Source of the DNA: an uncultured Clostridia bacterium
GTDB lineage: Bacteria > Bacillota > Clostridia > Christensenellales > UBA1242
Reading direction: 5' to 3'
Assembly: GCA_934754445.1 (NCBI GenBank)
Contig: CAKVHZ010000001.1
Coordinates: 8,469 to 72,468, forward strand
Length of the DNA stretch: 64,000 nucleotides
Shown here: piece by piece, positions 14,250 to 46,800 of the stretch
How the letters are laid out: each line of letters opens with the position of its first letter
Numbering within the stretch: the first letter of the stretch is position 1
Made by a program: the position numbers and the translations under genes
The notes under the pieces: model-generated
What the model saw: the letters and a program-made list of their open reading frames with translations, nothing else
Databases searched by the model: none
What the model was told of the DNA's origin: nothing

Positions 14250-14305
14250 GTGTGCTTGTTTTCGGTGGAGCGTAGCGACACCGACTTGTATCAAGACAAG
14301 CACAC
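14250..14305. ncRNA. Candidate structured RNA element (three-way-junction-like fold)
   Basis: A 10-bp outer stem GTGTGCTTGT/ACAAGCACAC encloses CGGTG-N11-CACCG and CTTG-tat-CAAG hairpins. Locally GC-rich. No T-run follows, so it is not a terminator. Confidence 0.3.
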
Positions 14306-14322
14306 GTTTAAATGCCATAAAT

Positions 14323-14937: not shown

Positions 14938-14939
14938 AA

Positions 14940-15995: not shown

Positions 15996-16169
15996 TCTCC
16001 TACTCCTTTATATTTTCTCCTAAATTATATATAAAAATAGGAGAATAGTCAAACGTTTAGGAGAAAATTTTAATAATTGGACCAATTTATCTCTAAATGA
16101 TTGCAAATTGATTCTGTTCATGTTATACTGAAAAAGTAAAGAAAGTAAAGAATTTTAAGGAGTAATAAT

Positions 16170-16379
16170 ATGCTAAAACAAGCAAAACTTTCTAATAAAT
16201 GTCAAATAACAGTACCAAAGCAAGTAAGAGATATTCTGGGTATTGGTAAAGGCGATGACGTTATGTTTTATATTGAAAACGATGAAGTAAAATTAACCGG
16301 GGCTAAAAATTTAAATATTAGATTAAAAAATACAAAGAAAGTTGCGATATTAAAAAATGGAGATAAGAATAATGGATAA
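16170..16379 (+). CDS. AbrB/MazE/SpoVT-fold DNA-binding protein
   Basis: CQITVPKQVRDILGIGKGDDVMFYIENDEVKL is a swapped-hairpin AbrB-type motif. The stop overlaps the hsdM start. Confidence 0.7.
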   Translation: MLKQAKLSNKCQITVPKQVRDILGIGKGDDVMFYIENDEVKLTGAKNLNIRLKNTKKVAILKNGDKNNG

Positions 16380-19339: not shown

Positions 19340-22293
19340 TGGAAACTAAAGAAAAAAATTATGAAGCTTTTATTGAAAAATACTTAACTACTAAAGGTGG
19401 TTACATTAAAGCTGACGAAACTGGATACGATAACAAAACAGGAATTATTATTTCTGATATGTTTTCATTCATTAAAACATCCCAACCAAGAGAATGGAAA
19501 AAAGTTATAGATAGTCAAGGTAGTCAAGCTGAAACATACTTTATTGATAGACTAAAGAAAAATATTGATGAAAATGGATTCTTACACGTATTACGAAATG
19601 GAATAAAATTAAATGGAGTAACAATTAATCTTATTTTCTTTAAACCTGAAAGCAATATCAATACTGATAGTATGAAACTATACGAACAAAATATTTGTAA
19701 ACTTGTTCGTCAGCTTCATTATTCATATTTAAACAATAATAGCTTAGATTCTGTTTTATTTATTAATGGTTTCCCTGTTGTAACAATAGAATTAAAGAAT
19801 GAATTTACAGGACAAACATGTGATGATGCAATTCGTCAGTATAAAAATGACAGAGATCCAAATGAAATAATTTTCCAATTTAATAAAAGATCTTTAGTTC
19901 ATTTTGCTGTAGATTTGCAAGAAGTGTACATGACCACAAAATTAAATGGAATAGCAACAAAATTTTTACCATTTAATCAAGGATCTAATGGTGCTGGCAA
20001 CGTCGGAGGAAAAGGAAATCCATACAATGAAAATGGTTTTGCGACAGCATATTTATGGGAAAATGTATTAAATAAAGATAGTTTGTTTGATATCTTAAAT
20101 AAATATATTCAACTAGAAGTTAAAAAGAATAAAAAGACCGGAGAAATTAAAAAAACATTAATATTTCCAAGATATCATCAACTAGATGTAGTTAGAAAAT
20201 TAATAGCAGATGCTAAACAAAATGGTGCAGGGAAAAATTATTTGATTCAACATAGTGCTGGAAGTGGTAAAAGCAATAGCATTGCATGGCTTGCCTATCG
20301 CTTAGCAACATTACATGATAAAGATGATAAAACAATATTTGATAGCGTCATCGTTATCACTGACAGACGAGTGCTTGATCAACAACTACAAGATAATATT
20401 TATCAATTTGAGCACACTTTGGGGTTCATTGAAAAAATTGATAAAAATAAATCCAGCAAGGATTTATTAACTGCAGTAAATTCAGGTAAGAAAATTATTA
20501 TTACAACATTGCAAAAATTTCCTATAATATACAAAGAAATCGAATCTGAAAACAAACATTTTGCGGTTATAATAGATGAAGCTCATTCTTCACAAACTGG
20601 CAATAGTGCTAAAAAATTAAAGGCAGGATTGGGTGATCTAGAAGAAGCAATTAAAATAGAAAGCGAACTAGAAGAACTTGCTTCTGAAAATGAAGATAAA
20701 CTTTTAAATGAACTGGCAAGTCAAGGAAAACAAAAAAACCTCTCATTTTTTGCCTTTACAGCAACACCAAAAGCAAAAACTTTACAAATTTTTGGAAATA
20801 AAACCGAATCTGGTACTTACGTTCCATTTCATATTTATTCTATGCAACAAGCCATTGAGGAAGGTTTTATATTAGATGTTCTTCAAAACTATATGACATA
20901 CAGCACATTTTATAAACTTGTTAAAAAAACAAATGAAGATCCTGAATTTGAAGCTGGAAAAGGTATTAAAGAATTAATTCGATTTGAGACTTTGCATCCT
21001 ACTAATATTTCGCAAAAAACGGCAATCATAATAGAACAATTTTTAAATACGACCGCATACAAGATTAATGGAAGGGCAAAAGCTATGGTTGTAACACCTT
21101 CAAGATTGCATGCAGTAAAATATATAAATGCTTTCAAAGAATACATCAAAAAGATTTCAATGGAAGATAAAATAAAAGTATTAGTTGCGTTTTCTGGTGA
21201 GGTTTTTGATCCTGACACAAATGAAACATATACTGAGGCTAGCATTAATAAAATCAGTGAAACTCAGCTTCCTGAAGTATTTGATGAAGAATACAATGTT
21301 TTAATTGTTGCAGAGAAATATCAAACAGGTTTTGATCAGCCACTTCTTCATACTATGTTTGTTGATAAAAAACTTTCTGGAATTAAAGCAGTCCAAACTC
21401 TATCAAGATTAAATAGAATTTGTGAAGGTAAAACAGATACATTTGTTCTCGATTTTGTTAACAAAGCAGAGGAAATACAAAATGCATTTCAAGATTATTA
21501 TCAAGGAACAGTTTTAACGGAAGGTTTTGATGTAAATAATGTGTATGATATTTATGGTAGATTAGAGGCATATAAAATAGTTGACATTAACGATATTAAT
21601 GGATTTGCGGATTTATATTATTCAAACTCGGAAGATATGGGGAAATTAAGTTCATATTTGTATAAATCAAAAGAAAAATACATTAATTTAGACAAGAAAG
21701 ATAAATACGAATTCAAATCAATAATGCAAGCATTTTTAAGAAATTATAATTTTGTTACACAAGTTACTAGAATGAATGATAAAGAACTACAAGCATCATA
21801 CATTTATTATAAATATTTAAACCAGTTTCTTCCTAAAGACAATACTAAAAAAATTGATGTTAAAGACCTAGTCGAACTAGAATATTTTAAAATAGAAAAG
21901 AAATTTGAAGGAAGTATTAGTTTAACAAAAGAGCAAGGAGAAATAGCTCCCGCAACAGGTAACATTGGAAGGAAAAGTGAAGAAACAAAAAATAAATTAA
22001 GTGAAATTATTGATAAAATAAATAAGAAGTACCAAACTAAATTCACAAATATGGATAAAGTATTTGAACAAATCGAAAGTGATTACCTCAACGATGAACG
22101 AATGAAAGCTTTTGCTAGAAACAATGAGGAAAAAGCATTTAAGAAAGTTTATGATAAAGAATTTGAAAACAAAGCTATTCAAAGATATGAACAAAATAGT
22201 GAACTTTTCAAAATATTATTTACTGATGAAGAATTTATGAACGACATAAAATCCGCTTTATTTAGAGTTGTTTATAACAAATTAAAACAATAA
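19339..22293 (+). CDS. hsdR: Type I restriction endonuclease/translocase subunit
   Basis: Walker A HSAGSGKSNS, DEAH box IIDEAHSSQTG and helicase motif QTLSRLNR. The ATG overlaps the hsdS stop (TAATG). Confidence 0.9.
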   Translation: METKEKNYEAFIEKYLTTKGGYIKADETGYDNKTGIIISDMFSFIKTSQPREWKKVIDSQGSQAETYFIDRLKKNIDENGFLHVLRNGIKLNGVTINLIFFKPESNINTDSMKLYEQNICKLVRQLHYSYLNNNSLDSVLFINGFPVVTIELKNEFTGQTCDDAIRQYKNDRDPNEIIFQFNKRSLVHFAVDLQEVYMTTKLNGIATKFLPFNQGSNGAGNVGGKGNPYNENGFATAYLWENVLNKDSLFDILNKYIQLEVKKNKKTGEIKKTLIFPRYHQLDVVRKLIADAKQNGAGKNYLIQHSAGSGKSNSIAWLAYRLATLHDKDDKTIFDSVIVITDRRVLDQQLQDNIYQFEHTLGFIEKIDKNKSSKDLLTAVNSGKKIIITTLQKFPIIYKEIESENKHFAVIIDEAHSSQTGNSAKKLKAGLGDLEEAIKIESELEELASENEDKLLNELASQGKQKNLSFFAFTATPKAKTLQIFGNKTESGTYVPFHIYSMQQAIEEGFILDVLQNYMTYSTFYKLVKKTNEDPEFEAGKGIKELIRFETLHPTNISQKTAIIIEQFLNTTAYKINGRAKAMVVTPSRLHAVKYINAFKEYIKKISMEDKIKVLVAFSGEVFDPDTNETYTEASINKISETQLPEVFDEEYNVLIVAEKYQTGFDQPLLHTMFVDKKLSGIKAVQTLSRLNRICEGKTDTFVLDFVNKAEEIQNAFQDYYQGTVLTEGFDVNNVYDIYGRLEAYKIVDINDINGFADLYYSNSEDMGKLSSYLYKSKEKYINLDKKDKYEFKSIMQAFLRNYNFVTQVTRMNDKELQASYIYYKYLNQFLPKDNTKKIDVKDLVELEYFKIEKKFEGSISLTKEQGEIAPATGNIGRKSEETKNKLSEIIDKINKKYQTKFTNMDKVFEQIESDYLNDERMKAFARNNEEKAFKKVYDKEFENKAIQRYEQNSELFKILFTDEEFMNDIKSALFRVVYNKLKQ

Positions 22294-22296
22294 AAA

Positions 22297-22338
22297 AATA
22301 AGACATTCTACTCTGCTTATAGAATGTCTTATTTTTTT
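22297..22338 (+). terminator. hsdR terminator
   Basis: 14-bp stem AATAAGACATTCTA/TAGAATGTCTTATT followed by T7. Confidence 0.85.
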
Positions 22339-22379
22339 GCTAGTTTCAAAATTGCCAGCCCTTTGGAGTTACTTTTTTA

Positions 22380-22859
22380 TTATTTTTCTATTACTGCATA
22401 AACGTTGCAAACAGCACCTAAAGCGAAGAAAACTCCACTTAAAATAGCACCAACGCCTAAAGCGCCATTAGAAAAAATTGTTTTTACTGCATTATCAGCA
22501 AATACCATAAAGTTTGGAACTAAGAAGCAAAGCACACAACCAGCAACCATTAAAATAGCACCAATTAGTTTAACAATTTTATTTTTGCTAATAACACTAA
22601 ATGAACCTACTAAAGGTAATAAAACAGCAAGTAAAGCAACAAAACTAAATTTTAATATTTCTTTGCTTAAAACAACATACGAACCAGCTTTACCAGTGTA
22701 TCCAAAAATAACTTGGAAACCACTAAAAGAATAATCGTTGTATGAAACATAAGCAAAGCATGCCATAATTGCACCAACAATAGCTAAAATAATAGCACCA
22801 TATTTTATGTAAGAAAGAGCTTTGTTTGAACTTCTACTTCTACTTTTTCTTTTTGCCAT
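22380..22859 (-). CDS. Hypothetical 4-TM membrane protein
   Basis: AAGGAGA SD, basic N-terminus and four hydrophobic helices. Confidence 0.65.
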   Translation of the reverse strand: MAKRKSRSRSSNKALSYIKYGAIILAIVGAIMACFAYVSYNDYSFSGFQVIFGYTGKAGSYVVLSKEILKFSFVALLAVLLPLVGSFSVISKNKIVKLIGAILMVAGCVLCFLVPNFMVFADNAVKTIFSNGALGVGAILSGVFFALGAVCNVYAVIEK

Positions 22860-22979
22860 ATATAATCTCCTTTTTAATTTTATATTCTTATTATAATATA
22901 CATTAAAATAAATTGCAATTATTTTAAATAATTAATAATTAAAGTTTTAAACAAAAATTATAAATTTGTTTAAAATAAA

Positions 22980-23525
22980 TTGAAAAATAAAAAGTTTTTT
23001 GTAAATAATATTTACATGAAGCAAACTTTAAAATATATTTATTCTGTTTTAAACGAAAATGTTAAATTTGCTGAAGGCAAACACAGTGTTTTAATTGCAT
23101 TAAATAGTGCATTAATAGTTTTTATTAGTGGTTATTTAGCGAGTAGAGTTATTTTTATTAAATTAATTACTTGTTTAGTAATAGTAACTAGTATGTTTAG
23201 TATTTTTTTTAACTTTGTGGCACTACTTTCACGAAAAGTTAAATATGTAAAAAATTTAAAGTATAAAGAAAATGAATTAAATTTAATATATTATAAACAT
23301 ATTATAAATTTTAGTTACGATGAGTTTTTAAAAGTAGTTAAGCAAAAATATAACTTTCCAGATGATTATAAATTTGATGGATTAGATTATGATTTAAGTA
23401 AACAAATAATAGCAACGAGTAATGTAATTAACTTAAAATTTACTTTTTTTAACTATAGTTTAGTTTGTTTATTTATTGCTTTAGTTTTAACTATTTTAAA
23501 TATAACATTAGTAGGGTTATTATAA
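22980..23525 (+). CDS. 3-TM membrane protein resembling the Pycsar-effector TM (PycTM/DUF5706-type) family
   Basis: VKFAEGKHSVLIALNSA leads into TM1, followed by TM2, a ~75-aa soluble insert and a C-terminal TM. Start is uncertain (TTG at 22980 or ATG at 23016); neither has an SD. Confidence 0.4.
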   Translation: MKNKKFFVNNIYMKQTLKYIYSVLNENVKFAEGKHSVLIALNSALIVFISGYLASRVIFIKLITCLVIVTSMFSIFFNFVALLSRKVKYVKNLKYKENELNLIYYKHIINFSYDEFLKVVKQKYNFPDDYKFDGLDYDLSKQIIATSNVINLKFTFFNYSLVCLFIALVLTILNITLVGLL

Positions 23526-23878
23526 TGAATGAATATTATAACGAATTTATATTATGGCTTAAAGGTATAGTTGAAGACGACCCAATACCTTATGAGATAA
23601 AATCACTTGTTTTTTATTTAAACAAAAATAATGAAATAGGTTTTTCTGGAACTGAAGAAAAAGAAGTTAAAGTTGTTGATAAGTTTTTTTATTATCCTTT
23701 AGAAGCACAATATTTTTACTGTTCTAATTTATATAACAAACTTTTTAAATTAACAAACAATGAAAAACTAAATGTTTTAAAAAATTTACTTGTTAATTTA
23801 AGCGATGATGGTTATTTTAAAAAGTTTAATTTATATTATGGATTTTTATATAATAATGCAAAAAAAATAAAAAAATAA
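23525..23878 (+). CDS. Hypothetical 117-aa cytosolic protein, translationally coupled to the upstream TM protein
   Basis: The ATG overlaps the upstream stop (TAATG). No family recognised. Confidence 0.5.
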   Translation: MNEYYNEFILWLKGIVEDDPIPYEIKSLVFYLNKNNEIGFSGTEEKEVKVVDKFFYYPLEAQYFYCSNLYNKLFKLTNNEKLNVLKNLLVNLSDDGYFKKFNLYYGFLYNNAKKIKK

Positions 23879-23932
23879 GTTATATTTAAAAAACTCTACA
23901 CATATATTTTATCATATTAAAGTGGAGGAAAT

Positions 23933-27504: not shown

Positions 27505-30500
27505 ATGAAAAATATTAAAAAACTAGGTTTTAGCATTTTTGCATTTATATTAATTTTGTTTGGTGGGGGTTATTTTGCACCAAACTTTTTCGTTTTAGCC
27601 GATACTAGTTTATATACTGGCGATGTTATTAACAATGTTTTTTATGTTACTTTTAGTGATGGAGATACAAATTGGATAAACGAAGTTCCTGAAACTCAAG
27701 CAAATTACACTCAAACTGTTCAACAACTGATGAACAACTCTTATAACACAAGTGTTTCTTCAGTTAAAGAATATTACAAAGCACAATCTTTTAATAGTTT
27801 AAATTTAACTTCTAATTTTTATACAAATTCAAACAGTGCTTACACTTTACCTTACACTAAAAATCAATTATTACCTTATTCTAAAACAAATACTTCAGGA
27901 TATTTAGAATATGATATTTGCTCTTATACTAATAGTAAGCCAGCACAAATGTCTTTAGATTTTTTTACAAAAACAACACATCTATTTTCGGCTTATAATT
28001 GTAACAATAGTAAACACGACGGTTCTTCATCGAAATGCGATTTGAGTTATGGTAGTGGAGATGATGTTGCATGTATTTGTGCTTATTATAAATATATAAA
28101 AGATAATCCTACCAAAAAGGTGACAGATTACGAACATTTAGAAAGATATTTTAGAGAACAAGTTGCAATTAAAACTTTGCTTTCAAAAATTTCTAGTTTA
28201 AGTGGTAATGTAGATAGAAATAACGATGGAAAAGTTGATGCAATAACCTTTATTTTTCCTAATATTACTGATACAGTAAACTGGAATGATTTACTTTGGG
28301 CTCATCAAATGTCGCTTGCTGATTTATCAAGCTTTAAAGGATATTCTAGCATTTTAAAAACGATGGCAAGCAAGCATGGACTAAGGAATTTAACAGATGA
28401 TGATTTGGATATAATTTTAAAGAATGTGGGAATTGGTGGAAAAATGTGTTACGATTATAACTTATATACTTTCCACGATTTGTTACCAAAAAGTGGTGGT
28501 AAAACCTTTTGTTTAAAAGATAAAAACGGTTTGCAATTAATAAATAACTACACCTTAGCACACGAACTTGGTCATGTTTTAGGACTTCCTGATTATTATA
28601 TTTATGATGATAATGATAAACATGACGACCCAGTTACATTTTGGGATTTAATGGCTTATGCTTATACTGGAACTCCGCTTTATATGACTACATATAATAG
28701 AGAAAAGTTGGGGTTTACTAATAGCACTAACATAAAAAAGATAACAAATAGTGGAAGTTATGAATTATATCCAACAAACTACGACGAAATAAATAATAGT
28801 AACAATAATTCAAATAAAGTTTTAGCATATGTTTATCAAGACCCAGCATATCCAAATCAAAAAATCTACATAGAATATAGAACAATGGAAGGGAAATTTG
28901 AGAGTGGACTAAAGAACTGGGTAACCGATAGAAAAGATGGGCTTATTATTTATAGGGTTGATGAAGGAGTAAAGCAGGTAAATGAATACTCTGGTATGCT
29001 TAGTAGTGGTAACTTTATGGGTTATCCTTATAACCTTTATGTTTTTAGAGATGGTAAAAACTATGCTTTAAATAGTGATTTTGTGTCTATGAATAATATA
29101 ACCTTTCAAACTTATGACAGCACAAAAAACCAAAAAGAATTATTAAAAAATGATGTTACTTTTACTAATAGCGGGCTAACGATTACATTTGAAAAAATTG
29201 AAAATGGGAAACTAAAATTTAATATATCTGGTGGTAATTTAAAAGGACAAGATAACAGAGATTTAGATTCTGTAACCTTAATTGGAAACAAAACTGTAAG
29301 TCATGAAGTTAAAACAAGTTATACCGATTTAGGTATAAATTATGGTGAATTTACTAGCGATGAATTTAATATTTCTATTGATAACAAAATCAATTTAAAT
29401 AAGTTGGGAACTTATAATTATACATACACCTTAACCTTAAAAACTGATAACTCAAAAACAAAAACGCTAACTAGAACAGTTCGTGTAGTGGATACTACAA
29501 AACCTACTGTTACTTTAATAGGAGAAGATAATCTCACAATTTCGAGCATCAATGACTATGAGGAGCAAGGCATAAATTATAGCGATAATTACGATGAAAA
29601 ATCAAATTTAACTAAAAATATAAGTGATTTAATTTATGTTAGTGAAAACTATTATAAAGTTGAATATTCAGTTACCGATAGTTCAGGTAACGAAACAATA
29701 ATTTGTAGATATATAACAATTTTAGCAAATCCTACTGATTTTTCTGGCGTAAAATTAAATGGGAAAACAAATATCGAACATGATGTTAAAACTAATTATG
29801 TTGATAGTGGCATAGATTTTGGGACATTTATTGAAAGCGAGTTTACAATAGAGAGAACTAACACTGTAAACATTAATGTTTTAGGTAGTTATACTTATAG
29901 TTATAAATTAACTTATAATTCAACTCATGAAACTTTTAATTTGGTTAGAACGATTAATGTTGTAGACAAAATTGCGCCAACGATTACATTACTTGGCGAA
30001 AATAATATATCAAAGTTTTTAAGTGAACTATCTTCCTATAATGACAAAAATGTTGCGGTTAGTGATAATTATAATACCGCAGACGATATTGTAATTATAA
30101 CAAGATTAGAAAAAATCAACGATAGTTTATATTACTATTTTTATAAAGCAAAAGATAGTAGTGGGAATGAGAGTGAAGAAATATATAGATTAATTAGAAT
30201 AGAATATAAACCTTTACAGCAAAGCCAAATAAGAATAGAAATAAAAAATAATAGCAGTGATACTACATTCTATACAGATACTATTATAAGATTTGCGACA
30301 AGAATTGATTATAATCAAGACAATTTACAAGGACAAACTATTAGATTTTTTATAAACGATGTGGAAATAAATACTAGCGGAGATTACTTTACTTATAAAT
30401 TCACTCGAGATGGAATTTATGGAATTAAAGTTCAAGTTGGTGATACAATTAAAGAAACGGAAATAATTGTAAAAGATATTAGCACAAAACCAGTAGACAC

Positions 30501-30621
30501 TCAAAAAATGAGTATGGCTGTAATGCTTGGAATAATTGCTGGGATTATATTATTCTTATTTGTAGTTATAATTGTATGTAGCAAAGCAAAAGAAATTAAA
30601 AATAATTTAGATAAATATTAG
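27505..30621 (+). CDS. Membrane-anchored M6 (immune inhibitor A-like) zinc metalloprotease with tandem Ig-like (DUF5011/HYR-type) modules
   Basis: Signal peptide, HELGHVLGLPDYY zinc site, a duplicated ~160-aa module pair and a C-terminal TM anchor. Confidence 0.6.
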   Translation: MKNIKKLGFSIFAFILILFGGGYFAPNFFVLADTSLYTGDVINNVFYVTFSDGDTNWINEVPETQANYTQTVQQLMNNSYNTSVSSVKEYYKAQSFNSLNLTSNFYTNSNSAYTLPYTKNQLLPYSKTNTSGYLEYDICSYTNSKPAQMSLDFFTKTTHLFSAYNCNNSKHDGSSSKCDLSYGSGDDVACICAYYKYIKDNPTKKVTDYEHLERYFREQVAIKTLLSKISSLSGNVDRNNDGKVDAITFIFPNITDTVNWNDLLWAHQMSLADLSSFKGYSSILKTMASKHGLRNLTDDDLDIILKNVGIGGKMCYDYNLYTFHDLLPKSGGKTFCLKDKNGLQLINNYTLAHELGHVLGLPDYYIYDDNDKHDDPVTFWDLMAYAYTGTPLYMTTYNREKLGFTNSTNIKKITNSGSYELYPTNYDEINNSNNNSNKVLAYVYQDPAYPNQKIYIEYRTMEGKFESGLKNWVTDRKDGLIIYRVDEGVKQVNEYSGMLSSGNFMGYPYNLYVFRDGKNYALNSDFVSMNNITFQTYDSTKNQKELLKNDVTFTNSGLTITFEKIENGKLKFNISGGNLKGQDNRDLDSVTLIGNKTVSHEVKTSYTDLGINYGEFTSDEFNISIDNKINLNKLGTYNYTYTLTLKTDNSKTKTLTRTVRVVDTTKPTVTLIGEDNLTISSINDYEEQGINYSDNYDEKSNLTKNISDLIYVSENYYKVEYSVTDSSGNETIICRYITILANPTDFSGVKLNGKTNIEHDVKTNYVDSGIDFGTFIESEFTIERTNTVNINVLGSYTYSYKLTYNSTHETFNLVRTINVVDKIAPTITLLGENNISKFLSELSSYNDKNVAVSDNYNTADDIVIITRLEKINDSLYYYFYKAKDSSGNESEEIYRLIRIEYKPLQQSQIRIEIKNNSSDTTFYTDTIIRFATRIDYNQDNLQGQTIRFFINDVEINTSGDYFTYKFTRDGIYGIKVQVGDTIKETEIIVKDISTKPVDTQKMSMAVMLGIIAGIILFLFVVIIVCSKAKEIKNNLDKY

Positions 30622-31600: not shown

Positions 31601-32146
31601 TTATTTGTTTTTATAAATATAATTAAAATTTTTGTCTCCCAACTTACAAATGTATGCACCTTCGTTTAAAGTCCCTTTAAAGAAAAATTTATCTTTATGA
31701 ACTTCGCCATTTTCAGTTTTATAAGTTATATCATAAAAGTTGTATCCTAAAATATTTAAAAGTGGATTAATATAAAATAAATTGTTTTTAATATAAACTA
31801 TTCCTATCAAACACAAAATTAATAAAAATATTACAAACATACTTATTTTTTCTAATTCAAAAGTTAAAGCAAAAAGCACAAAAAGTGAAAAATAACCTAA
31901 AAAATGTTCTTGTGTTATACTTTTTTTCTCAATTATGGTAATTTTCTCTAACTTATAAATTCCGCTTTTACTTTCTTTTACTATTCCAAAACTTCCTAAA
32001 ATAATTAAAATAGTTAATAGAATTAAAGTTAAAGTGTTTAAGACATTAAAAGTTAGATTTTTATTAATTATATCAATTAATTCTTTTATAATAATCAAAC
32101 TATATAGCGGAATAAACGCACTTAAATATAAAAAAACTTTTTGCAT
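31601..32146 (-). CDS. Hypothetical multi-pass membrane protein
   Basis: Four hydrophobic segments followed by a ~50-aa soluble tail. No SD. Confidence 0.5.
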   Translation of the reverse strand: MQKVFLYLSAFIPLYSLIIIKELIDIINKNLTFNVLNTLTLILLTILIILGSFGIVKESKSGIYKLEKITIIEKKSITQEHFLGYFSLFVLFALTFELEKISMFVIFLLILCLIGIVYIKNNLFYINPLLNILGYNFYDITYKTENGEVHKDKFFFKGTLNEGAYICKLGDKNFNYIYKNK

Positions 32147-32243
32147 ATTATTAGTTTTTTTATTTTTTTAAAAATTATTCTAGAATGGTTTGATTAAAAA
32201 TTATAAATGTTTTAAAAATTGAAGCGTTTGAATTTTTTGAAGA

Positions 32244-32271
32244 ATAAAAAAATGTGCTTTAAAGCACATTT
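32244..32271 (-). terminator. Terminator of the TasA-like gene
   Basis: AAATGTGCT-ttaa-AGCACATTT flanked by A/T runs. Confidence 0.7.
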
Positions 32272-32276
32272 ATTTT

Positions 32277-32939
32277 TTACGCACCTGTTCCGTAAGCAGT
32301 AGTCCACTTTTCTGGGGCAGTAGTCCAAACTTCACTTGCTGCACCGTTAGCATATTGGATTGCTTCAACTTGGAAAGTTACAGTATAAACTTTGTTTGCA
32401 TCTAAATTGGTTAGTTCTTTAGGAACTGTTATTGCAGTACAAAAATCTACACTATCACCAGCATTCACCGAACCATTGTAGTAATAATAATCATCAGTTC
32501 CTTGAACCCATTTATCGCTTGTTGTAGCAGTAATAGGTTTACTTGTTGCTTCGCCAGTGTTTGTTAATGTAAGTTTACATCTTAAAACAGACTTACTTGT
32601 ATTTTGCGGAACACTAACACCTATTGCTTGTGTATAACTAGTTCCGGGCATTGCTGTTCCATCAAATGTTAAAGATTCAACACTTGTTCCACCTTGAGTA
32701 ATATTAATGTTTACTGGGTTACCCAATGTAATATTACCAGTGGCTGTTTGGTTAGCACTAAAGAATGCTGCTGTTAATCCTAAAATTAAAGATAGACCTA
32801 ATAAAATAGAAAGAGTGATAATAGCAACTGTAGAAGCATTACGATTTTTTCTTGTGTTAACGGCAACTACTCGTTTATTTTCACTATTCTTTTTTGTAGG
32901 ACTAGGTTTATTTTGTTGATTCATTTGGTTGTTGTCCAT
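32277..32939 (-). CDS. TasA/camelysin-like secreted protein (paralogue 1)
   Basis: AAGGAGG SD. The signal-anchor ends in LTAAFFSANQTATGNITLG (SipW-substrate-like A-[YF]-F-[ST] box). C-terminal motif is Q..NGAASEVWTTAPEKW. Confidence 0.45.
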   Translation of the reverse strand: MDNNQMNQQNKPSPTKKNSENKRVVAVNTRKNRNASTVAIITLSILLGLSLILGLTAAFFSANQTATGNITLGNPVNINITQGGTSVESLTFDGTAMPGTSYTQAIGVSVPQNTSKSVLRCKLTLTNTGEATSKPITATTSDKWVQGTDDYYYYNGSVNAGDSVDFCTAITVPKELTNLDANKVYTVTFQVEAIQYANGAASEVWTTAPEKWTTAYGTGA

Positions 32940-33040
32940 ACTTTTCCTCCTTTTTTGTTTGATTTTAGTTTGGTGGTTTTATTAAAAAATATACATAACT
33001 ATTTTGAATTTATTTTTTTATTCTACAAATAATATAGGTA

Positions 33041-33598
33041 ATGAATAGTTTTTTTAATAAGAATAAAGATTTAATATATTTATTTTCCATATTATTCCTG
33101 TTTTCTATTTTTCTGGTTGTGGTTAGTTTTTCTATTGCTTATTTCACTTCGACTAAAAATATCACAGGAAATATACAACTTGGAGAGTTGGATTTTGAAA
33201 TTTTAGTAGATACTAAAGACGCAAATAACATCATGCCGGGAGATGAATTAGATATTAACATTAATGTTGTTAATAAAGTGGCGAACAAAAAAAATTTAAT
33301 ACCTTTTTATTTTAGATTTTGTTTTTTAGATAATGGCATAAAGAATATTATTGACTTTAAAAAAAACGATAATTTTATTAAAGATGATAATTACTATTAT
33401 TACAAATATAAAGTTAAGGTAAATGATACCGTAAATTTAATTAATTCCATTAAAATTAATGAGTCTTTATCGCAAAACGAAGTGAAATCGTTAAGTTTAG
33501 AAATTATGGTTGATGCAGTTCAAAGTGAATATGGGGCATATAAAGAAGTTTTTAAAGATGCACCAAAAGAATGGATAGAGTTTATAGAAAATTTTTAA
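33041..33598 (+). CDS. TasA/camelysin-like secreted protein (paralogue 2)
   Basis: FSIAYFTSTKNITGNIQLGELDF after the TM segment. C-terminal motif is VQSEYGAYKEVFKDAPKEW. Confidence 0.45.
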   Translation: MNSFFNKNKDLIYLFSILFLFSIFLVVVSFSIAYFTSTKNITGNIQLGELDFEILVDTKDANNIMPGDELDININVVNKVANKKNLIPFYFRFCFLDNGIKNIIDFKKNDNFIKDDNYYYYKYKVKVNDTVNLINSIKINESLSQNEVKSLSLEIMVDAVQSEYGAYKEVFKDAPKEWIEFIENF

Positions 33599-33670
33599 AA
33601 TTACTTTACAAAAGTTAAGTTATTAAATATAATATAATTAATAACAAATGATAAAAGGGGGAGTGTTTTA

Positions 33671-34720
33671 ATGAGTGATAATAAATTACCAGATAAAAAT
33701 GCACCAAAAACACCAAAGGCTACTCCAAAAACAGTAACACCTAAACCAAGTGGGAATGCTCCTAAAGTAGCACCAAAGACCGCACCTAAAACAGCGGTTA
33801 CACCAAAACCTACAGCAAATTCTGCTATAAAAAGTAATTCAGCAAAAGTAAAAACACCAACAGTGGCTAAAGAACCAGCATCTACAAAAATAAATGCGGG
33901 AACAACTGCTATGCCTAAAACAAATCCTTTCACTCCAAAAGTAAATCCTGTTACTAAAAAAGTGGATAGTGAACCAAAACCTGTAATGCCTAATAAAAGT
34001 GCTATAAAACCTAATCCTATAAAACCACAAACCAAGGCTGTTGATGCTTCGGGTGTTATGGTTAAAGCGGATGATAATGGAGAAAAAAAGAAAAAACGAA
34101 GAAGATTGTTACTATTATTATTGTTGTTACTATTATTTGTAACTTCAATTGGACTAGCAGTTTATTTTGTGAGCAAAAATGCTCCCGTTCCGGAAATTAA
34201 ATTTTCAATAGAAATTCTATCCAGTGAAGTAAAAACCGAATATGTTGATGAAAATGACCATACCGTAAATAAAATTCAATTTATGCCTGGCGACCCAGTT
34301 GAAGGGAATCTTAAAATTAAAATAATTAACGATAAGGGGACAATTTCTACTAGTGAAAATGTTTTCTTAAGATTTAAAATAGATATTGTTGTAGATGACA
34401 ACAACTATTATAATTTCTTTGACCCTATTTTGAATGAAAGATATGAAGGCGAAAAATGGACTTGTGGCGATAAAACTTTAACCGATTTTACTAGGGGGCA
34501 AAGTTTTGATGGATATTATTACTATAACACCAAATGTTATGGTGGCGAAGAAATAGAAGTATTTAATAGTATTGATTTTGTTGGTGAAAGACAAAATAAC
34601 GCATTAAACGGAAAAGAAGGTAAAATGATATTTACTATTGAAATTTTACAAGGCGACCATTCTGCTATAAACGATAATTGGCAAACAGCACCAACTACAT
34701 GGCGTAGAAAAGTTAGATAA
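33671..34720 (+). CDS. TasA/camelysin-like protein (paralogue 3) with 150-aa Pro/Lys/Thr-rich N-terminal extension
   Basis: GGGGGAG SD. PKxxPK-type low-complexity N-terminus, then KKKKRRR-L10 TM, LAVYFVS box and C-terminal LQGDHSAINDNWQTAPTTW. Confidence 0.45.
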   Translation: MSDNKLPDKNAPKTPKATPKTVTPKPSGNAPKVAPKTAPKTAVTPKPTANSAIKSNSAKVKTPTVAKEPASTKINAGTTAMPKTNPFTPKVNPVTKKVDSEPKPVMPNKSAIKPNPIKPQTKAVDASGVMVKADDNGEKKKKRRRLLLLLLLLLLFVTSIGLAVYFVSKNAPVPEIKFSIEILSSEVKTEYVDENDHTVNKIQFMPGDPVEGNLKIKIINDKGTISTSENVFLRFKIDIVVDDNNYYNFFDPILNERYEGEKWTCGDKTLTDFTRGQSFDGYYYYNTKCYGGEEIEVFNSIDFVGERQNNALNGKEGKMIFTIEILQGDHSAINDNWQTAPTTWRRKVR

Positions 34721-34729
34721 GGGGCAAAA

Positions 34730-36007
34730 ATGAAAAAATTTTGTAAGATACTCTGCTCAATTTGTTTATTAATTAGTTCTTCACTAATCTTTTTTGCTTG
34801 CAAAGATGATATAACGCCTAAAATATTGCAAGCACCAGCGAATTTTGGAATGGTAAATAATGGAGAGTTGGATGACGAAACTTTTGATTTTATAAATAAT
34901 CAATATTTGTTGGTTGTAGAAAAAAATGCAAATGCTAGTTCCTATAAATTTTATTTGACCGACAACTCAAATTATCAGAGTTTAGATAATTATGTGGGAT
35001 ATGAAACCACAAATAACTATTTTGATGTAACAAATATTTTTGATAGTAAAAAAGTTTATCATTATTTTGTTCAATATATAGGTGATGGGAAAAAATATCT
35101 TAATAGCGAATATTCTACTATAAAATCGTATACTCCAGACCCTGAAATGGTGGATGCTCCTTATGTGCAATTAACTGGCGAAAAATTATGTTGGACACAA
35201 ATTTTAAATGCTAATAGTTATGAAATTTATGAAACAATTTTAAATAAAGATAATAGTGTTGTTCAAGAAAAAACAAAGATTGCAACTGTAAACTACAATG
35301 TATTTGAATATGATATAAGTGCAAGATTTAGTGATGTTAATTATCCATATTATAAATATAATTATGAAGTTTTATCATTAGCAAGTGGTTTTTATGAAAA
35401 TTCAAATTTTAGCAACAAAGTTGAATATATTAAAAATGTAAATTTAGAGACGCCAAAAAATTTAAGTGTTTCAAAAGAAGATAATGATTACTATTTAAGT
35501 TGGGATAACACAAAGTATGCAACAAGTTATTTAGTAAAAATTAATGGAAATACTCCTATTGAAATAAATAGCACAAAACTAAACATAACTGCATATTTAA
35601 CAAATTACGCAAGTTTTACTTTCAGTGTAAAAGCAAATAAAAGTGATGCTATAAGTTATATTGAAAGCGATTATAGTAACGATTTAGTTTATGACTATAA
35701 AACAAAATTACAAATGCCAACTAATTTAACTGTTGCAACTGAAGGTGAATTTATTAAAGTAGAATTTGATAATGTAAATTTAGCAACAAACGGTTATACT
35801 TTAAAAGTTTATTACTTAGGTAGTCTTGTTAAAACAATCAGTGATTTTGAAAGTGGAAATTTACTACGTTCAACCGAACTGGTAGGTGAATTAGATGCTG
35901 ATAAAGATATAACTATAGAAGTTTATGCAAATAATGTTGGAGAATATATTGAAAGAAGCGAAAGTGCTAGAGTTAACTACACAATATTAAAACCAACACT
36001 AGGCTAA
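34730..36007 (+). CDS. Lipoprotein with FN3-like repeats
   Basis: Lipobox IFFAC. Repeated P.NL.V....Y.LSWD.V..ATSY.V-type segments. It starts 9 nt after the previous stop. Confidence 0.55.
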   Translation: MKKFCKILCSICLLISSSLIFFACKDDITPKILQAPANFGMVNNGELDDETFDFINNQYLLVVEKNANASSYKFYLTDNSNYQSLDNYVGYETTNNYFDVTNIFDSKKVYHYFVQYIGDGKKYLNSEYSTIKSYTPDPEMVDAPYVQLTGEKLCWTQILNANSYEIYETILNKDNSVVQEKTKIATVNYNVFEYDISARFSDVNYPYYKYNYEVLSLASGFYENSNFSNKVEYIKNVNLETPKNLSVSKEDNDYYLSWDNTKYATSYLVKINGNTPIEINSTKLNITAYLTNYASFTFSVKANKSDAISYIESDYSNDLVYDYKTKLQMPTNLTVATEGEFIKVEFDNVNLATNGYTLKVYYLGSLVKTISDFESGNLLRSTELVGELDADKDITIEVYANNVGEYIERSESARVNYTILKPTLG

Positions 36008-36089: not shown

Positions 36090-36120
36090 AAAAAAAAGAG
36101 CAATTAAATTGCTCTTTTTT
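36090..36120. terminator. Bidirectional terminator
   Basis: AAGAGCAA-ttaaa-TTGCTCTT flanked by A8 and T6. Confidence 0.8.
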
Positions 36121-39414: not shown

Positions 39415-40455
39415 ATGGAAAAAAGATTAAATAAATACATAAAAAAAGTATTAATTAAAGATGATTGTTTTAGTGAAATTAATAATTTAATTGAAGAGAA
39501 TTTTGTAAATAGTAGAGTAGTATTCGTTGTAGATTTTTATACTTATCAAACTTATTATTACAAATTATTAGAACTACAAAAATGCTCTTTAAATAGTGTG
39601 GAAATTAAGGTTATTTATAACGAAAAAAAGTCAGAAAAAAAACTTGAAAATTTATTGAATGAAACTTATAGTATGATAGTTGGAATAGGCGGTTTTAATG
39701 TGTTAAAATTCACTAAAAATTTTGCCATAAAAAATAATATAAATTATGCTATTATTAACTTATATTCATTAAAATGCGAAATTTTTACTGATTTTTTATC
39801 AAATTTTGATTATTTTAACCCAAATTCGCCAATATTCGTGTTAATAAATAAGCAAAAAGTAACACATAAATTATTGTTTGATTTAAGTGTAAATTTGTAT
39901 AAATATAGTTATGTTTTGTTTGAAAATTATACTTTGGAATTTAAGAAAAATTATATTGATATTATAACAAATATAAATGCTGAAAATATATATGAAAAGG
40001 TTGTTGCTTGTGGGCTACTTTTTAATCAAAACAATATAAAATTTATAGTTAAAAATAATTATAATGATTTTAATAATTTTATATATAGTCAGGTTTATTT
40101 ATTAATAAATAGAAATATATTAAAAAAGATAAATAAAAACAATTTGTGTTTGATAGATATGTTAAATTTTAATAGTAAAAAAAGTTTAAATAATTATATT
40201 AACTTTGATGTTAAATTTAACAAATTTTACTTGCTTGCAAATAAATATTATCTTTTAAACAAAATAAATAAAGTTTTAGAGATGAATGCAACAATCTTAT
40301 TTAAACTAAAATGTTTAGATATATATGCTTTTTATACTTATTGTAAAACTTGTGATAAAATTAAATTTAAAAATATTTTTAATTTTAATAACACAATTTT
40401 AGATAAAATGAAATATTTTGAAATATTTGAAAGTGTAAATAAATTTTATGCTTAA
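39415..40455 (+). CDS. Hypothetical protein, remote DHQS/Fe-ADH-like glycine motif
   Basis: SMIVGIGGFNVLKFTKNFA loosely resembles the GGGS..D nucleotide-binding loop. Extremely Asn/Lys/Tyr-rich. No SD. Confidence 0.3.
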   Translation: MEKRLNKYIKKVLIKDDCFSEINNLIEENFVNSRVVFVVDFYTYQTYYYKLLELQKCSLNSVEIKVIYNEKKSEKKLENLLNETYSMIVGIGGFNVLKFTKNFAIKNNINYAIINLYSLKCEIFTDFLSNFDYFNPNSPIFVLINKQKVTHKLLFDLSVNLYKYSYVLFENYTLEFKKNYIDIITNINAENIYEKVVACGLLFNQNNIKFIVKNNYNDFNNFIYSQVYLLINRNILKKINKNNLCLIDMLNFNSKKSLNNYINFDVKFNKFYLLANKYYLLNKINKVLEMNATILFKLKCLDIYAFYTYCKTCDKIKFKNIFNFNNTILDKMKYFEIFESVNKFYA

Positions 40456-40483
40456 AAAAAATAAAGCGGTTAATAATTAATGC

Positions 40484-40975
40484 ATGAAAAAATTAATTTT
40501 ATTAATCGCCTTTTTGTTTCTTCTTACTTTAACTTATAGTTTCTCGCCAATATTTAATAATTTATTTTCTTTACATAATGTTGTTTTTAGTGATGCGGTA
40601 TATTCGGTTTATTGTTTAGATATTAGTAGTAGTTTAAATTCTAATGATATAATTGTTTTAAATAATGGAAATAGTTTTATAGTAAAAAGCAATATAAATT
40701 ATGCTGAATTTGTTAAAAAAAATTCTTTTAATGTTTTGGGTGAAAGTGTTAGTTTTAAAAGCGACTTGTTTTCTATTGATAGAATAATTAAATTTTATAA
40801 TATTGATGTAAAAATAAAAGAGAATGTTGCTGATATTATAACTATTTATGGATATAGTAAAAACAATCAATTTACCAATTCGGTTATAATTGACAATGAA
40901 CCTGTAAATATACAAATTGCTTTTAAAGATAAAAAACTGACGATAGGCACTCCAATAATTTTAGGAGATTATTAA
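40484..40975 (+). CDS. Hypothetical secreted protein (163 aa)
   Basis: Signal peptide. No family recognised. No SD. Confidence 0.45.
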   Translation: MKKLILLIAFLFLLTLTYSFSPIFNNLFSLHNVVFSDAVYSVYCLDISSSLNSNDIIVLNNGNSFIVKSNINYAEFVKKNSFNVLGESVSFKSDLFSIDRIIKFYNIDVKIKENVADIITIYGYSKNNQFTNSVIIDNEPVNIQIAFKDKKLTIGTPIILGDY

Positions 40976-41028
40976 AAATTTATGTTTAAAAAAAAATATT
41001 AAGTCAACAATTAGAGTAGGAGGATAGT

Positions 41029-41598
41029 ATGGAAAAATTTTTAAAAAGAATGAGCAAATATAAAACGTACTTATATTCAATTTTGGCGGTTGTAATTTTA
41101 GCGGTAATTTTAACTACTGTGGTGGCTGTTAATACGAATAAAACACAAAATTCTATACCAACGAACACAGATTCAATTAAGTTTAGTTTACCTGTTTTAA
41201 ATGCAAGTATTACTAAAGGTTATAATGCTGAAGAGTTGCAATATAATAAAGGTTTAAACTGCTGGGAAATTCATAAAGGCTTAGATTTACTTGCTGAAAT
41301 AGGAGACAATGTTCTTGCTTGTTACGACGGAGAAGTTACTAACATCACTTCTAACTATTTAGATGGAACAACTATTGAAATAACTCACTCCGATGGTTTA
41401 AAAAGTGTGTATAGTGGTTTAAATAGTGACACTAAAGTAAAGGTTGGCGATAGCGTTAAAATCAACGATGTGATTGGTGTTGTCGGCTCAGAACTAGCGC
41501 TAGAAGGCGAAGAAGGTTCTCATGTTCATTTTGAATTAATTAAAGATGGCGAGAAAGTTGACCCATTAAATTACATTGAAATTGGGCTAAAAGATTAA
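41029..41598 (+). CDS. Membrane-anchored M23/LytM peptidase, SpoIIQ-like
   Basis: N-terminal TM, then HKGLDL...GDNVLACYDGEV...GSHVHFELIKDGEKVDP. Located near spoIIID. AGGAGG SD. Confidence 0.75.
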   Translation: MEKFLKRMSKYKTYLYSILAVVILAVILTTVVAVNTNKTQNSIPTNTDSIKFSLPVLNASITKGYNAEELQYNKGLNCWEIHKGLDLLAEIGDNVLACYDGEVTNITSNYLDGTTIEITHSDGLKSVYSGLNSDTKVKVGDSVKINDVIGVVGSELALEGEEGSHVHFELIKDGEKVDPLNYIEIGLKD

Positions 41599-43767: not shown

Positions 43768-43840
43768 AATATAAATAATTTAATTATATTATTTTGTGAT
43801 AAAAAATGCACTTTGTTACAAAATAAATTTAGGAGTAATT

Positions 43841-46800
43841 ATGAAGATAAAAAAACTTGCGACTATTTTATTTGTTACACTACTTTCTTTTATGGGGGTA
43901 TTCTTTGGCTGTAAACCAAATTACAATAATTTTAGTATTGAGGTTAATGGCGAGAACACCATTAATTTAAGCACGAAAGAAATAGGGGATTTAAAAACTG
44001 AAGCATATGTGCAAATAAATATTAAAAATGCACCAAATGATGCTTGCAGAAATATTTCTACTCAAGTAAGCAAAGGGAATATTATAACTATTTCTAAGGT
44101 GGAAAATAATAATAAAGATATCGCAGTTTTCAAGATTAAAGCACTAGAAAATATATCTTCATATGACCCTAGTTGTGAAGTTACTTTTAAAAGTGCAGAA
44201 GGTAACAAAACTTGCAGGTTAAAAGTAAATGTTATCATTCCTGTTACAAATATTACAAAAAATGATGCATATAGCCCTTATGTTGTTGCTGGCGATTTAG
44301 ACGAAAACGGACAAGCAAATAAATATTACATAGATACGGCTAGTTTAATTACTTTCTCTCCAAGCAATACTACACAAAGAGATATTGTTTATAGTTTAGT
44401 TGATGAAACTTTAAAGGATAGATATGACATTGTTGTGTTAGAAAATGGTGCGATAAGTGTCGGCAAAGTTTTTGATGAAAGTAATGTTGCTGTTCCTACT
44501 AGCATTAAAATTAATGCAAAAAGCAAAAGTGATGAAACAAAAAGTTTTGATTTTGATGTTAGAGTTTTAAGAGCAATTTCTTATGATGATTTTGAAATTA
44601 GTTATAGATACGATACTATAGATGCCGAAGAACAAAAGTTTAGTGGAGAAGATGATTTAATTGAGGGCGCTGACAATTCTACAACAATTAATACTTTAAT
44701 AAAAAACGGTATTTCTCTTGCATCAAATAAAGACTCTCAAAGAAATGTTGAATTTAATATTTCTATGCTTGCTCAATCTGGATTAAGTTTTGATGAAATT
44801 GAAGTTGAGTTTAAAAATAATACTTTAAACAATGCTTTAATTGAATATTTAAGCACTAATGATATTAAAACAATTAAAAATTATAAAATTTATTCAACGA
44901 ATTCTGGAAACGATGTTTTGGTTGTAAAACTAAAATACAAAGGCATTTATGATTATGCTAAAACTGTTGAAATTCCAATTTCAGTTAAAGAATATCCAAT
45001 TTCTTTAATGGTTAATGCTAGTGATAAAGATGTTTATAATATTTTTGATTTTTATGAAAATTCTGTTAAAGGCGAAGAATTTAATGTTGTTGTAAGTAAA
45101 TTAGGTGCTTATGATAGAACATTTAAAATCGTTATACCTGAAGACCAATTTAATCTTGTTGACATAAGATACAATAACAAATTATTAGATTATGAAACAT
45201 TAACAAATTTAACTTTTGATAGTGGTAGTAGTATATTCATAAAAGCAAAAGAAGTTTTGTCAGTTATAGATTTTGACTTGATGCCAAAAATTAGTTTTGT
45301 TTCATCTTCTTTATTTGTAGATGGAAATTTACCAAATGACATACTAACTACCGAAGAAGGGAAAAAACTATCAAAAACTATAACTTTAAATTTACTACCT
45401 GGAGTTAAAACACTAGAATATGATGGTGTTTTCTTAGAAGAAAAAGATTGTTATTATCTTCAAAGTAAAAATAACCAAATAGTTATTGACTATGTTATTA
45501 ACAAAGAATTTGTGCCAGAATTAAGTAGTGTTATTAATATCGAATTTTTACAAGGTGAAAATTTAATTAAATCTATTGAAAATAGAATTGACAATGTTAA
45601 CAACAAATTGCAATTTGTTTTAACAAGTGGCGAAGATTTAGGTCAAGTTGTATTTTATTTAACTAGTCAAAATGGTTTAAAAACAAAACAAAAGAAAATT
45701 CAAATTTATAATTATTACGATGAAAGCCTTGAACAATTTAGTTTAAAACTGGAAAGTAATAACTTAAAACAATCTAAAATAGGTGAAGATACTAAATATT
45801 ATCTAGGACTAGCCGAAGGTAAAAACTTTGCTAATATTAAAGTAGAAAACCCACAAAATGCTACTATTTATGATGTGGTAATTGAAAGTAGTAATGAAAG
45901 TGCTATAAAACCTACAATTTTAAATAAAGAAAATTTAACCTTTAACCTTTTTGCATTAAATGAAAGTGTAGACCCAGTTAAAATTACAGTTAAAATTTTA
46001 GTATATAGTGCTAATGATGTTGTAAATAATACAATGCTTCAATCCGAAATTGTGCTTGAATTTGAAGTAAATACCTACTATCCTATAACTGCGGTAGAAG
46101 TAAAACAAGAATCAGTTACTGTAGTTGATGGCATGAGTTTAGATATTGATAGCAAAAACAAAAAATTAAATGTTTTAGATGTTGAAAACTTAATTGATAT
46201 CCAAAGAAATGGGGATATTTATGCGGGGCTAAAAGTTGAATATATTTTCCCTACAAACTTTATCGAATTTAAAAACTTTACTTACAACTATAATGCAATA
46301 GATAATCAAAGTTATGCATTAGAAGAAAAAGAGGGCAGTCCATTTAAGAAAATTATTTTCTTTGCAGGGAAATCTCATAAATTTGTAAACAATGAATATA
46401 GTTTTAGATTAACAATTAAAATTTATGACCTAGAAGGTGGCGAAGGCTTAGCGCCTATAACACTAAACATAGTTTTAAAAAATCAAGTTCAAGTAGATAA
46501 TATCGAAATTTTAAATGATGATGGATTTGTTTATTTACAAGATACTGATGTTTATGGTCAAATATTAACAAAAGTTTCTTCAAAAACTGGCGAAAAAGTT
46601 ACAAACTCTAGTTTAACTTACGAAATTGTTGAAAACAATAATAGTGTTAATTTAGATAATGAAGCAGGTGTTTTAACAATTAAAGCACCAGGTGTAACAA
46701 AAGTTAAAATTAGTGCAAATTCAAGTAAATATAACGAAGATGATGAATTTGCGGTATATAGATATGTTTATGTGATTGTTGCAGATGGTAGTAAAAATTA

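Follow-up and report, generated by a model that had tools for sequence, protein, structure and literature searches.

TasA-type donor-strand fibres are known as scaffolds of biofilms. Whether proteins of this kind can also be built into a spore is the question raised by a cluster of four genes, here called pA, pB, pC and pD, at positions 32277-36007 of a 64,000-nucleotide stretch of contig CAKVHZ010000001.1 (the window, by which we mean the whole of this stretch), from an uncultured spore-forming human-gut Clostridia bacterium; the G+C content of the window is ~26%. A preliminary description of the cluster had suggested a fibre or a spore-appendage or matrix assembly. Conserved predicted forespore-type promoters and, in related genomes, an adjoining gerA operon for germinant receptors point to expression inside the developing spore rather than to a vegetative biofilm matrix or an external appendage. 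We give a probability of roughly 0.55 to the composite reading that the locus encodes a sporulation-expressed, TasA-type assembly of beta-sandwich proteins at the spore inner membrane.

Contigs of ENA metagenomes (90-510 kb) carry identical genes, and the closest genomes in GTDB are metagenome-assembled genomes labelled Clostridia or Christensenellales; the comparisons below cover the 29 GTDB loci with pA. In the sources looked up no name is attached to any of the pA-pD proteins or to any member of their clusters, and a search of the literature on TasA in Christensenellales found nothing relevant. The genes and their signals are arranged as follows.

32250-32271, minus strand: terminator-like hairpin, 6 nucleotides after the pA stop codon.
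32277-32939, minus strand: pA, 220 amino acids, best-conserved of the remote TasA/BsaA-superfamily paralogues and proposed major exported subunit.
32966-32994, minus strand: predicted pA promoter of forespore type (sigmaF/sigmaG-like), GTATA-N17-CAAACTA, followed by the Shine-Dalgarno sequence GGAGGA.
33006-33034, plus strand: predicted forespore-type promoter of pB-pC-pD, GAATT-N17-AATAATA, ending 6 nucleotides before the pB ATG.
33041-33598, plus strand: pB, 185 amino acids, second TasA-like paralogue, with a short n-region, a transmembrane (TM) segment and a canonical box.
33671-34720, plus strand: pC, 349 amino acids, membrane-anchored TasA-like paralogue.
34730-36007, plus strand: pD, 425 amino acids, membrane-tethered, with the lipobox LIFFAC and four FN3-like units.
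36092-36120, no strand assigned: palindromic terminator hairpin separating pD from the convergent gene ychF.

The reading frames lie exactly where they had first been placed, and pD starts 9 nucleotides past the stop codon of pC, the last paralogue. Because a terminator-like hairpin stands directly behind its stop codon, pA is taken to be monocistronic; it is the conserved core gene, with a strong ribosome-binding site and a terminator of its own. The co-directional genes pB, pC and pD close at the hairpin at 36092-36120 and are a divergent, fast-evolving unit: identity to the window copy across the 29 loci is 52-86% for pA against 24-54% for pB, pC and pD. An early suggestion of major, minor and anchor subunits fits these figures and the membrane-anchored subtype to which pC belongs.

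Judged by sequence, pA, pB and pC are true paralogues. Pairwise BLASTP comparisons give E-values of 1e-8 (pA/pB), 1e-7 (pA/pC) and 9e-7 (pB/pC), and the three proteins have the motifs MPG(D), YYYY and (E/D)A(I/V)Q...A...W..AP..W in common, so that their likeness reflects homology rather than chance. The preliminary description had credited all three with one architecture, namely a basic N-terminus, a single TM segment, an A-x-F box and a common C-terminal signature. The relationship is borne out by the BLASTP values, the last of the motifs above is the C-terminal signature, and a basic N-terminus and a single hydrophobic segment are found in all three; the A-x-F box, on the other hand, is kept in the pA and pB families and is not conserved in the pC family.

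In pA, a basic n-region (residues 1-36) and a hydrophobic segment (37-57) are followed by AAFFSANQTATGNITLG and a beta-sandwich of ~150 amino acids. Pairwise identity among pA orthologues is 27% in the n-region, 77% in the TM segment, 75% in the stretch behind it and 67% in the core, and the conserved post-TM stretch of the family reads AAFFSA..TATG.ITLG. The corresponding box of pB is S-I-A-Y-F-T-S...TGNIQLGELDF, and pB orthologues likewise show a short n-region and then a canonical [ST]-x-A-[YF]-F...G.I.LGELDF. The TIGR04088 model of SipW-type signals gives pA 13 bits against a cut-off of 19, and the motif (an h-region, small residues, A-[YF]-F-[ST] and then G-x-[IL]-x-[LV]-G) is visible and conserved in both families. 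The organization of pC is different: a Pro/Lys-rich cytoplasmic tail of ~145 amino acids leads to KKKKRRR and a poly-Leu TM segment, with the beta-sandwich on the extracellular side, and its orthologues have a low-complexity cytoplasmic tail (~45-215 amino acids), a polybasic stretch and a TM segment followed by P..P.DI.F, without an A-x-F box. Alignments of orthologues and representatives reveal no SipW-dependent-type signal motif in the pC family. The pC of the window does contain A-V-Y-F-V-S literally, but since pC orthologues have TM-P..P.DI.F in its place, the match is probably coincidental and not a cognate cleavage box. The long-tail architecture recurs in 28 of 143 superfamily representatives, 27 of which have no box, and the pC type thus looks like a distinct membrane-anchored subtype. 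A 144-amino-acid open reading frame (ORF) on the minus strand (33601-34035) overlaps the start of pC in antisense; it almost certainly arises as an artefact, the coding region on the opposite strand being of low complexity and rich in Pro and Lys.

The likeness to TasA and camelysin proposed at the outset holds at the level of the superfamily, through transitive profiles, whereas direct hidden Markov model (HMM) scans stay below cut-off. On PF12389 (Peptidase_M73) pA scores 12.8 bits (E 0.1; cut-off 22.5). On TIGR04090, the BsaA model with a cut-off of 60, pA reaches 23.9 bits (3e-5, residues 108-210) and pB 23.7 bits (3.5e-5, residues 19-79), the two matches falling on different but colinear parts of the model; pC has zero matches in the direct Pfam and NCBIfam family scans. 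A profile of pA orthologues together with pB and pC was then compared with 1.84 billion cluster representatives, and matched 3437 of them at E<=1e-3 and 675 at E<=1e-10. Among the 139 best representatives (E<=7.5e-17), PF12389 is matched by 46 (best 5.9e-14), TIGR04090 by 52 (best 1e-22), the SipW-type signal-peptide model TIGR04088 by 36 (best 4e-11) and the TasA model by 13. With a second-round profile built from the best representatives, B. subtilis TasA scores 37.8 bits over two colinear stretches, of which one spans signal peptide, A-x-F and PGD and the other the C-terminal ...F.(E)A.Q; hhalign gives a probability of 77% and E 2e-5. The TasA query is identical to PDB 8AUR over mature residues 28-261. 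A shallow pA alignment gave no significant hhalign match to TasA, and a profile of pA orthologues matched nothing relevant among PDB sequences. For pA itself 354 homologues were found, none of which carries a name.

By this transitive profile evidence, pA, pB and pC are remote members of the TasA/CalY/BsaA superfamily, which is represented by PF12389 in Pfam and by TIGR04090 and NF046066 in NCBIfam. An iterative-HMM survey describes the family as widespread and very divergent in sequence: of its set of 2172 proteins only 632 belong to the M73 InterPro family, and the tie between BsaA and TasA was itself made with the same kind of evidence (PMC11580942).

The timing of expression is indicated by the upstream regions. 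The B. subtilis sigmaF/sigmaG consensus is about GHATR, 17-18 nucleotides and CAHWHTA; the class is recognised here by a -35 of G[ACT]AT[AG], a spacer of ~17 nucleotides and a -10 of CA-A--TA. A strict pattern, GHATA-N17-CAHWHTA, occurs three times on both strands of the window (128 kb) against 1.7 expected, one occurrence being upstream of pA, and 27 times in the related loci (~0.5 Mb, or 1.0 Mb on both strands), of which about 16 are upstream of pA. In 26 of the 29 loci, including those in which pA stands alone, TG[ACT]ATA-N17-[CA]A[AC]A[ACT]TA precedes pA, and in pA loci an AGGAG Shine-Dalgarno sequence lies 8-39 nucleotides past the promoter element. The pB element, G[ACT]ATT-N17/18-[AC]A[AT]AATA, is present in 12 of 15 loci and ends 4-8 nucleotides before the ATG; as no Shine-Dalgarno sequence is found upstream of pB, this spacing suggests a leaderless pB mRNA. 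Both elements resemble mapped sigF/sigG promoters of C. difficile, such as those of spoVT (TGTATA...GGTAAAAATAA), sspA (TGAATT...CACAATAAT) and tepA (TTAATA...GGTAAAACTAAAT) (Table S6, PMC3789822), and are unlike a sigmaA promoter. A sigmaE-like reading of the conserved block upstream of pA was considered and dropped in view of the register G[ACT]ATA-N17-CAAACTA. The pA and pB-pC-pD units thus carry a conserved predicted promoter of the forespore sigmaF/sigmaG class.

The gene order of related genomes adds a second indication. The arrangement of pA next to pB-pC-pD is preserved, wholly or in part, in 21 loci and is complete in 13; of the incomplete ones, three have no detectable pB, and in the remainder pD is cut by the contig end or has diverged. 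Eight loci outside the window's clade extend past pD in the available sequence (L010, L011, L013, L021, L022, L023, L025 and L028), and in all eight a gerA-type operon of the order gerAA-gerAB-gerAC follows on the same strand. The gap between pD and gerA was folded in seven of these loci, and has a hairpin with a run of T just behind pD; six of the seven gaps also have a separate CATACTA or CAAACTA box before gerAA (L022 has none). Co-transcription of pD and gerA was therefore rejected for most loci: because of the terminator and the separate CATACTA promoter between them, the two are neighbours and not one transcript. L025, where the stop codon of the lipoprotein gene overlaps the gerAA start, is the exception. 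In the window itself there is no gerA gene.

L025, which comes from a more distant genome, also shows four TasA-like paralogues side by side (L025:9896-12751). One of them has a canonical GGTMAWF signal and matches Peptidase_M73 at E 1.4e-3, and a transglutaminase-like lipoprotein and gerA lie ~2 kb past the four. This arrangement may stand nearer to the ancestral state of the system.

Seven loci have pA alone (L009, L016, L019, L020, L024, L026 and L030), and no gerA was detected in their available flanks. In several of them pA has pth-mfd and a PrsA-like gene on one side and an M23 peptidase, a SpoIIT-like gene, ACP and SpoIIID on the other, neighbours which have counterparts at 39-43 kb of the window. 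Indeed, SpoIIID, SpoIVA, a SpoIIT-like gene and an M23 peptidase gene lie near the cluster of the window. Three co-directional genes on the plus strand at 39415-41598 encode an unannotated protein of 346 amino acids, a SpoIIT/DUF1779-like protein and an M23 peptidase (SpoIIQ-like?); their counterparts stand directly beside the solitary pA in L020, L024, L026 and L030, and this gene set may be the ancestral neighbourhood of pA.

The fourth gene of the cluster was expected to encode an FN3-like lipoprotein, and this is what the comparison of its orthologues indicates. Its N-terminus has the lipobox-like LIFFAC (in three orthologues an uncleaved TM anchor takes its place), and the remainder consists of four units of ~95 amino acids with the pattern P.NL...W...A.(S/G)Y.(I/V)...Y.F.V.A. 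A Pfam scan with the single pD sequence found no match, and a profile of 11 pD orthologues compared with the PDB matched fibronectin (6MFA, E 8e-7) and FN3 monobodies (E 4e-4). Long orthologues of 674-1112 amino acids combine FN3-like repeats with a C-terminal transglutaminase-like region:

L013, 1185-4433: long pD copy.
L021, 4269-7388: long pD copy.
L022, 599-3937: long pD copy.
L025, 14656-16680: long pD copy.
L028, 5214-8432: long pD copy.

In the four long copies scanned (L013, L021, L022 and L028), PF01841 (Transglut_core) is matched above cut-off at E 7e-7 to 8e-12, and a model of a transglutaminase-related lipoprotein is matched below cut-off in L022 and L025. In L008 and L017, where pD is truncated by the contig end, the transglutaminase-like region was assigned by tblastn alone. 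A search found no transglutaminase-like domain in the pD of the window or elsewhere in the window.

A structural model of pA obtained with AlphaFold2 (AF2) from a deep alignment is a beta-sandwich with a predicted local distance difference test (pLDDT) of 88.6; from a shallow alignment the pLDDT is 64 and the Foldseek matches are meaningless. Compared with the PDB by Foldseek, the deep model has as its top matches PliG, the AfaE/DraE adhesins and Ena, all with TM-scores below 0.45. The stretch just past the TM helix, which is the most conserved sequence, has a pLDDT below 50 in the shallow model and coincides with a dip in confidence that persists in the deep one. This is the position of the donor strand in related filaments, where residues 28-38 of TasA (PMC9674648) and residues 28-38 of BsaA (PMC11580942) complete the neighbouring subunit. 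The equivalent segment of pA combines 75% identity (against 67% in the core) with low confidence in the monomer model.

From these parts the following course of assembly can be proposed. The proteins pA-pD would be synthesised in the forespore and leave it through Sec by crossing the inner forespore membrane, where a type I signal peptidase encoded elsewhere would cut pA at LTA/AFF and pB at SIA/YF, both predicted sites lying after small residues ahead of A-[AYF]-F. By analogy with TasA and BsaA, the freed and highly conserved N-terminal segment (AFFSANQTATGNITLG) could serve as the donor strand by which the beta-sandwich of the following subunit is completed, giving rise to a polymer. With its uncleaved TM segment pC would stay in the membrane as a base or anchor, and pD, a lipoprotein with an FN3 stalk, would tether or space the assembly; in related species the transglutaminase-like domain of pD could cross-link or process it. 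The product would come to lie on the outer face of the spore inner membrane, in the compartment that also holds the GerA receptors. An external appendage or a part of the exosporium is disfavoured by the putative forespore origin, since an appendage would be made by the mother cell.

Several observations weigh against an assembly of this kind. No curated Pfam or NCBIfam model is matched at cut-off by pA, pB or pC in direct scans, and in the Foldseek ranking TasA (5OF2) comes only 49th (E 0.063, TM-scores 0.29/0.32), behind generic beta-sandwiches. The assignment of the promoters to the forespore class rests on motif similarity and conservation. The link to gerA is positional only, given the terminator between and the gerA operon's own promoter, and in the window's clade gerA no longer adjoins the cluster and the transglutaminase-like domain has been lost. 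Moreover, in the characterised operons of TasA and BsaA sipW is adjacent, and neither tblastn nor a motif scan detected SipW (ER-type, TIGR02228) in the window and related loci, ~504 kb in all. The queries of the tblastn searches were a SipW sequence (293 bits on NF046067, the NCBIfam SipW equivalog) and an unvalidated SipS-type sequence. That the window has neither a SipW nor a TapA-like gene had been noticed before and agrees with these searches. In fact no signal peptidase I of any type was found in the window (six-frame motif scan, tblastn and precomputed Pfam matches for most genes), and SipW was likewise not found in the 29 GTDB loci or in the extended contig flanks. The only signal peptidase I genes found are of the bacterial type and lie 2.6-3.6 kb from pA in L013, L022 and L028, with unrelated genes between.

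In its fully specified form the proposal is of a forespore-made, SipW-unlinked, TasA-like polymer which is deposited within the spore envelope, on the inner membrane's outer face, is anchored by pC and the FN3 lipoprotein and works together with GerA. In all these details at once we regard the proposal as tentative and rather improbable, and our preference is for the broader assembly at the spore inner membrane.

Another possibility is that the proteins do not polymerise, but are membrane-tethered beta-sandwich proteins of the spore inner membrane which retain their hydrophobic N-termini as anchors, for example as a GerD-like scaffold or accessory of GerA-type germinant receptors. In pA the TM segment is indeed more conserved than the core (77% versus 67%), a cleavage box is missing from pC, pD is anchored either as a lipoprotein or by a TM segment, no dedicated peptidase is encoded nearby, and gerA is adjacent in 8/8 loci. 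However, small residues at positions -1 and -3 are retained in pA and pB, as is the family motif A-[YF]-F...G.I.LG, which in TasA and BsaA forms the donor strand; gerA is transcribed separately; and pA stands alone in seven loci with gerA undetected in the available flanks. We therefore consider simple anchoring an unlikely account of the locus.

Similarly doubtful is a vegetative biofilm-matrix or cell-surface fibre like TasA, CalY or BsaA, with pA as major subunit, pB as TapA-like nucleator, pC as anchor, pD as adhesin and SipW encoded elsewhere in the genome. It would account for the superfamily membership found in profile searches and for the SipW-type motifs of pA and pB, and operons of the family in which several paralogues stand together with FN3 neighbours are on record (PMC11580942). 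Yet the conserved promoters are of the forespore class and unlike sigmaA, the surrounding genes are those of sporulation and germination, and no SipW is linked in the window or in the 29 related loci. Finally, the idea that these are camelysin-type (M73) metalloproteases, which has only the Pfam family name Peptidase_M73 in its favour, can hardly be entertained and was rejected, as pA and pB contain zero histidines, pC has no HExxH, and the labelling of the family as peptidases is considered a probable error (PMC11580942).

Further genes of the window lie beside the cluster or at some distance from it. Directly downstream of pA is a gene for a protein with four TM segments:

31601-32180, minus strand: KwaA-like 4-TM gene, with its own predicted forespore-type box at 32152-32180.

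This box, GAATA-N17-AAAACTA, ends 6 nucleotides before the ATG, and the gene may belong to the same regulon, although its membership of the system is uncertain. It also adjoins pA, with 68-83% conservation, in L002, L003, L005, L006, L007 and L012. The protein matches PF28043 in Pfam and the NCBIfam model KwaA at 64.9 bits (7.8e-18; cut-off 100). With a score below cut-off and no KwaB beside it (the next genes are DegV and pA), a role in Kiwa defence was rejected, and the protein looks like a sporulation membrane protein rather than a defence gene product. On the plus strand at 27505-30621 is the gene of a 1038-amino-acid protein with an M6 (InhA-like) metalloprotease domain, bacterial Ig-like domains and a C-terminal TM anchor; in L002 this gene is found in synteny with DegV, the KwaA-like gene and pA.

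On the other side of the cluster, a giant ORF of 6266 amino acids (43796-62596, plus strand) has a lipoprotein-type signal (…FMGVFFGC) and many GG[LI][IV]G-type repeats; Pfam finds no domains in it except one weak GLUG motif, and it is presumably a huge surface protein. A defence-type island at ~14300-23900 contains a Fic protein, a MazE-like antitoxin, the type I restriction-modification genes hsdM, hsdS and hsdR (16357-22293) and a PycTM (Pycsar effector-like) protein (22980-23525).

If the assembly at the spore inner membrane is real, it would widen the role of the TasA fold from the extracellular matrix to an internal spore structure: a lineage of uncultured gut spore-formers keeps pA under a predicted forespore-type promoter, usually beside a germinant-receptor operon. 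It would also tie back to the old and little-explained spore association of B. subtilis TasA (CotN). Were the polymer to work with GerA as well, it would represent a new structural layer or germination scaffold in the spores of uncultured gut Christensenellales-like Clostridia. The promoter elements, the predicted cleavage sites and the proposed anchor subunit provide handles on the spores of abundant but uncultured members of the human gut microbiota.

Among the known systems to compare are the archaeal bundling pili AbpA and AbpX. The papers cited present them as TasA-like donor-strand filaments, and they demonstrate that the mechanism spans very divergent sequences, but they belong to another domain of life and another genomic context, and no direct sequence or structural match to them was obtained. 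The Ena subunits of B. cereus (DUF3992) are spore-associated beta-sandwich (jellyroll) proteins and appear among the weak Foldseek matches, which are not significant (E about 0.01-0.07, TM-scores below 0.3); no sequence relation was found. Besides, an external appendage of the Ena kind would be a mother-cell product, whereas the genes here carry predicted forespore-type promoters.

B. subtilis TasA (CotN) was first described as spore-associated and so offers a precedent for a spore-linked member of the family. It is united with pA, pB and pC in one superfamily by the two-step profile (37.8 bits) and by the signal with its A-x-F box, PGD and F.(E)A.Q, and TapA provides a precedent, as a minor subunit by which the fibre is anchored or nucleated. 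There are also differences: the mature domain comprises ~160 amino acids here and 234 in TasA, tapA and sipW are missing from the locus, the structural match is weak (Foldseek E 0.063), the motifs YYYY and W..AP..W have not been noted in TasA, and the predicted forespore expression contrasts with the SinR-controlled biofilm programme of B. subtilis.

The closest curated model, although sub-threshold here, is the BsaA/BsaB system of C. perfringens (sipW-bsaA-bsaB-bsaC, TIGR04090). Both loci bring several TasA-like paralogues together, and in both an N-terminal hydrophobic segment precedes a conserved strand for which monomer models show disorder; the oligomers of BsaA are, moreover, anchored in the membrane. 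With regard to the N-E-K isopeptide triad of BsaA, the Asn of the donor region varies in pA and pB orthologues, by inspection of alignments only, which is a weak test. In contrast to the BsaA locus, there is neither an adjacent sipW nor the vWA protein BsaC, the promoters are predicted to be of the forespore type, one paralogue is bitopic with a long cytoplasmic tail, and the partner is an FN3 lipoprotein, to which a transglutaminase-like domain is added in relatives. The family itself, its multi-paralogue operons and its FN3 neighbours are thus already known. What is new is their combination with a lineage-wide promoter of predicted forespore type, the absence of a linked SipW, the linkage to gerA, a class of membrane-anchored paralogues and an FN3 lipoprotein with or without a transglutaminase-like domain.

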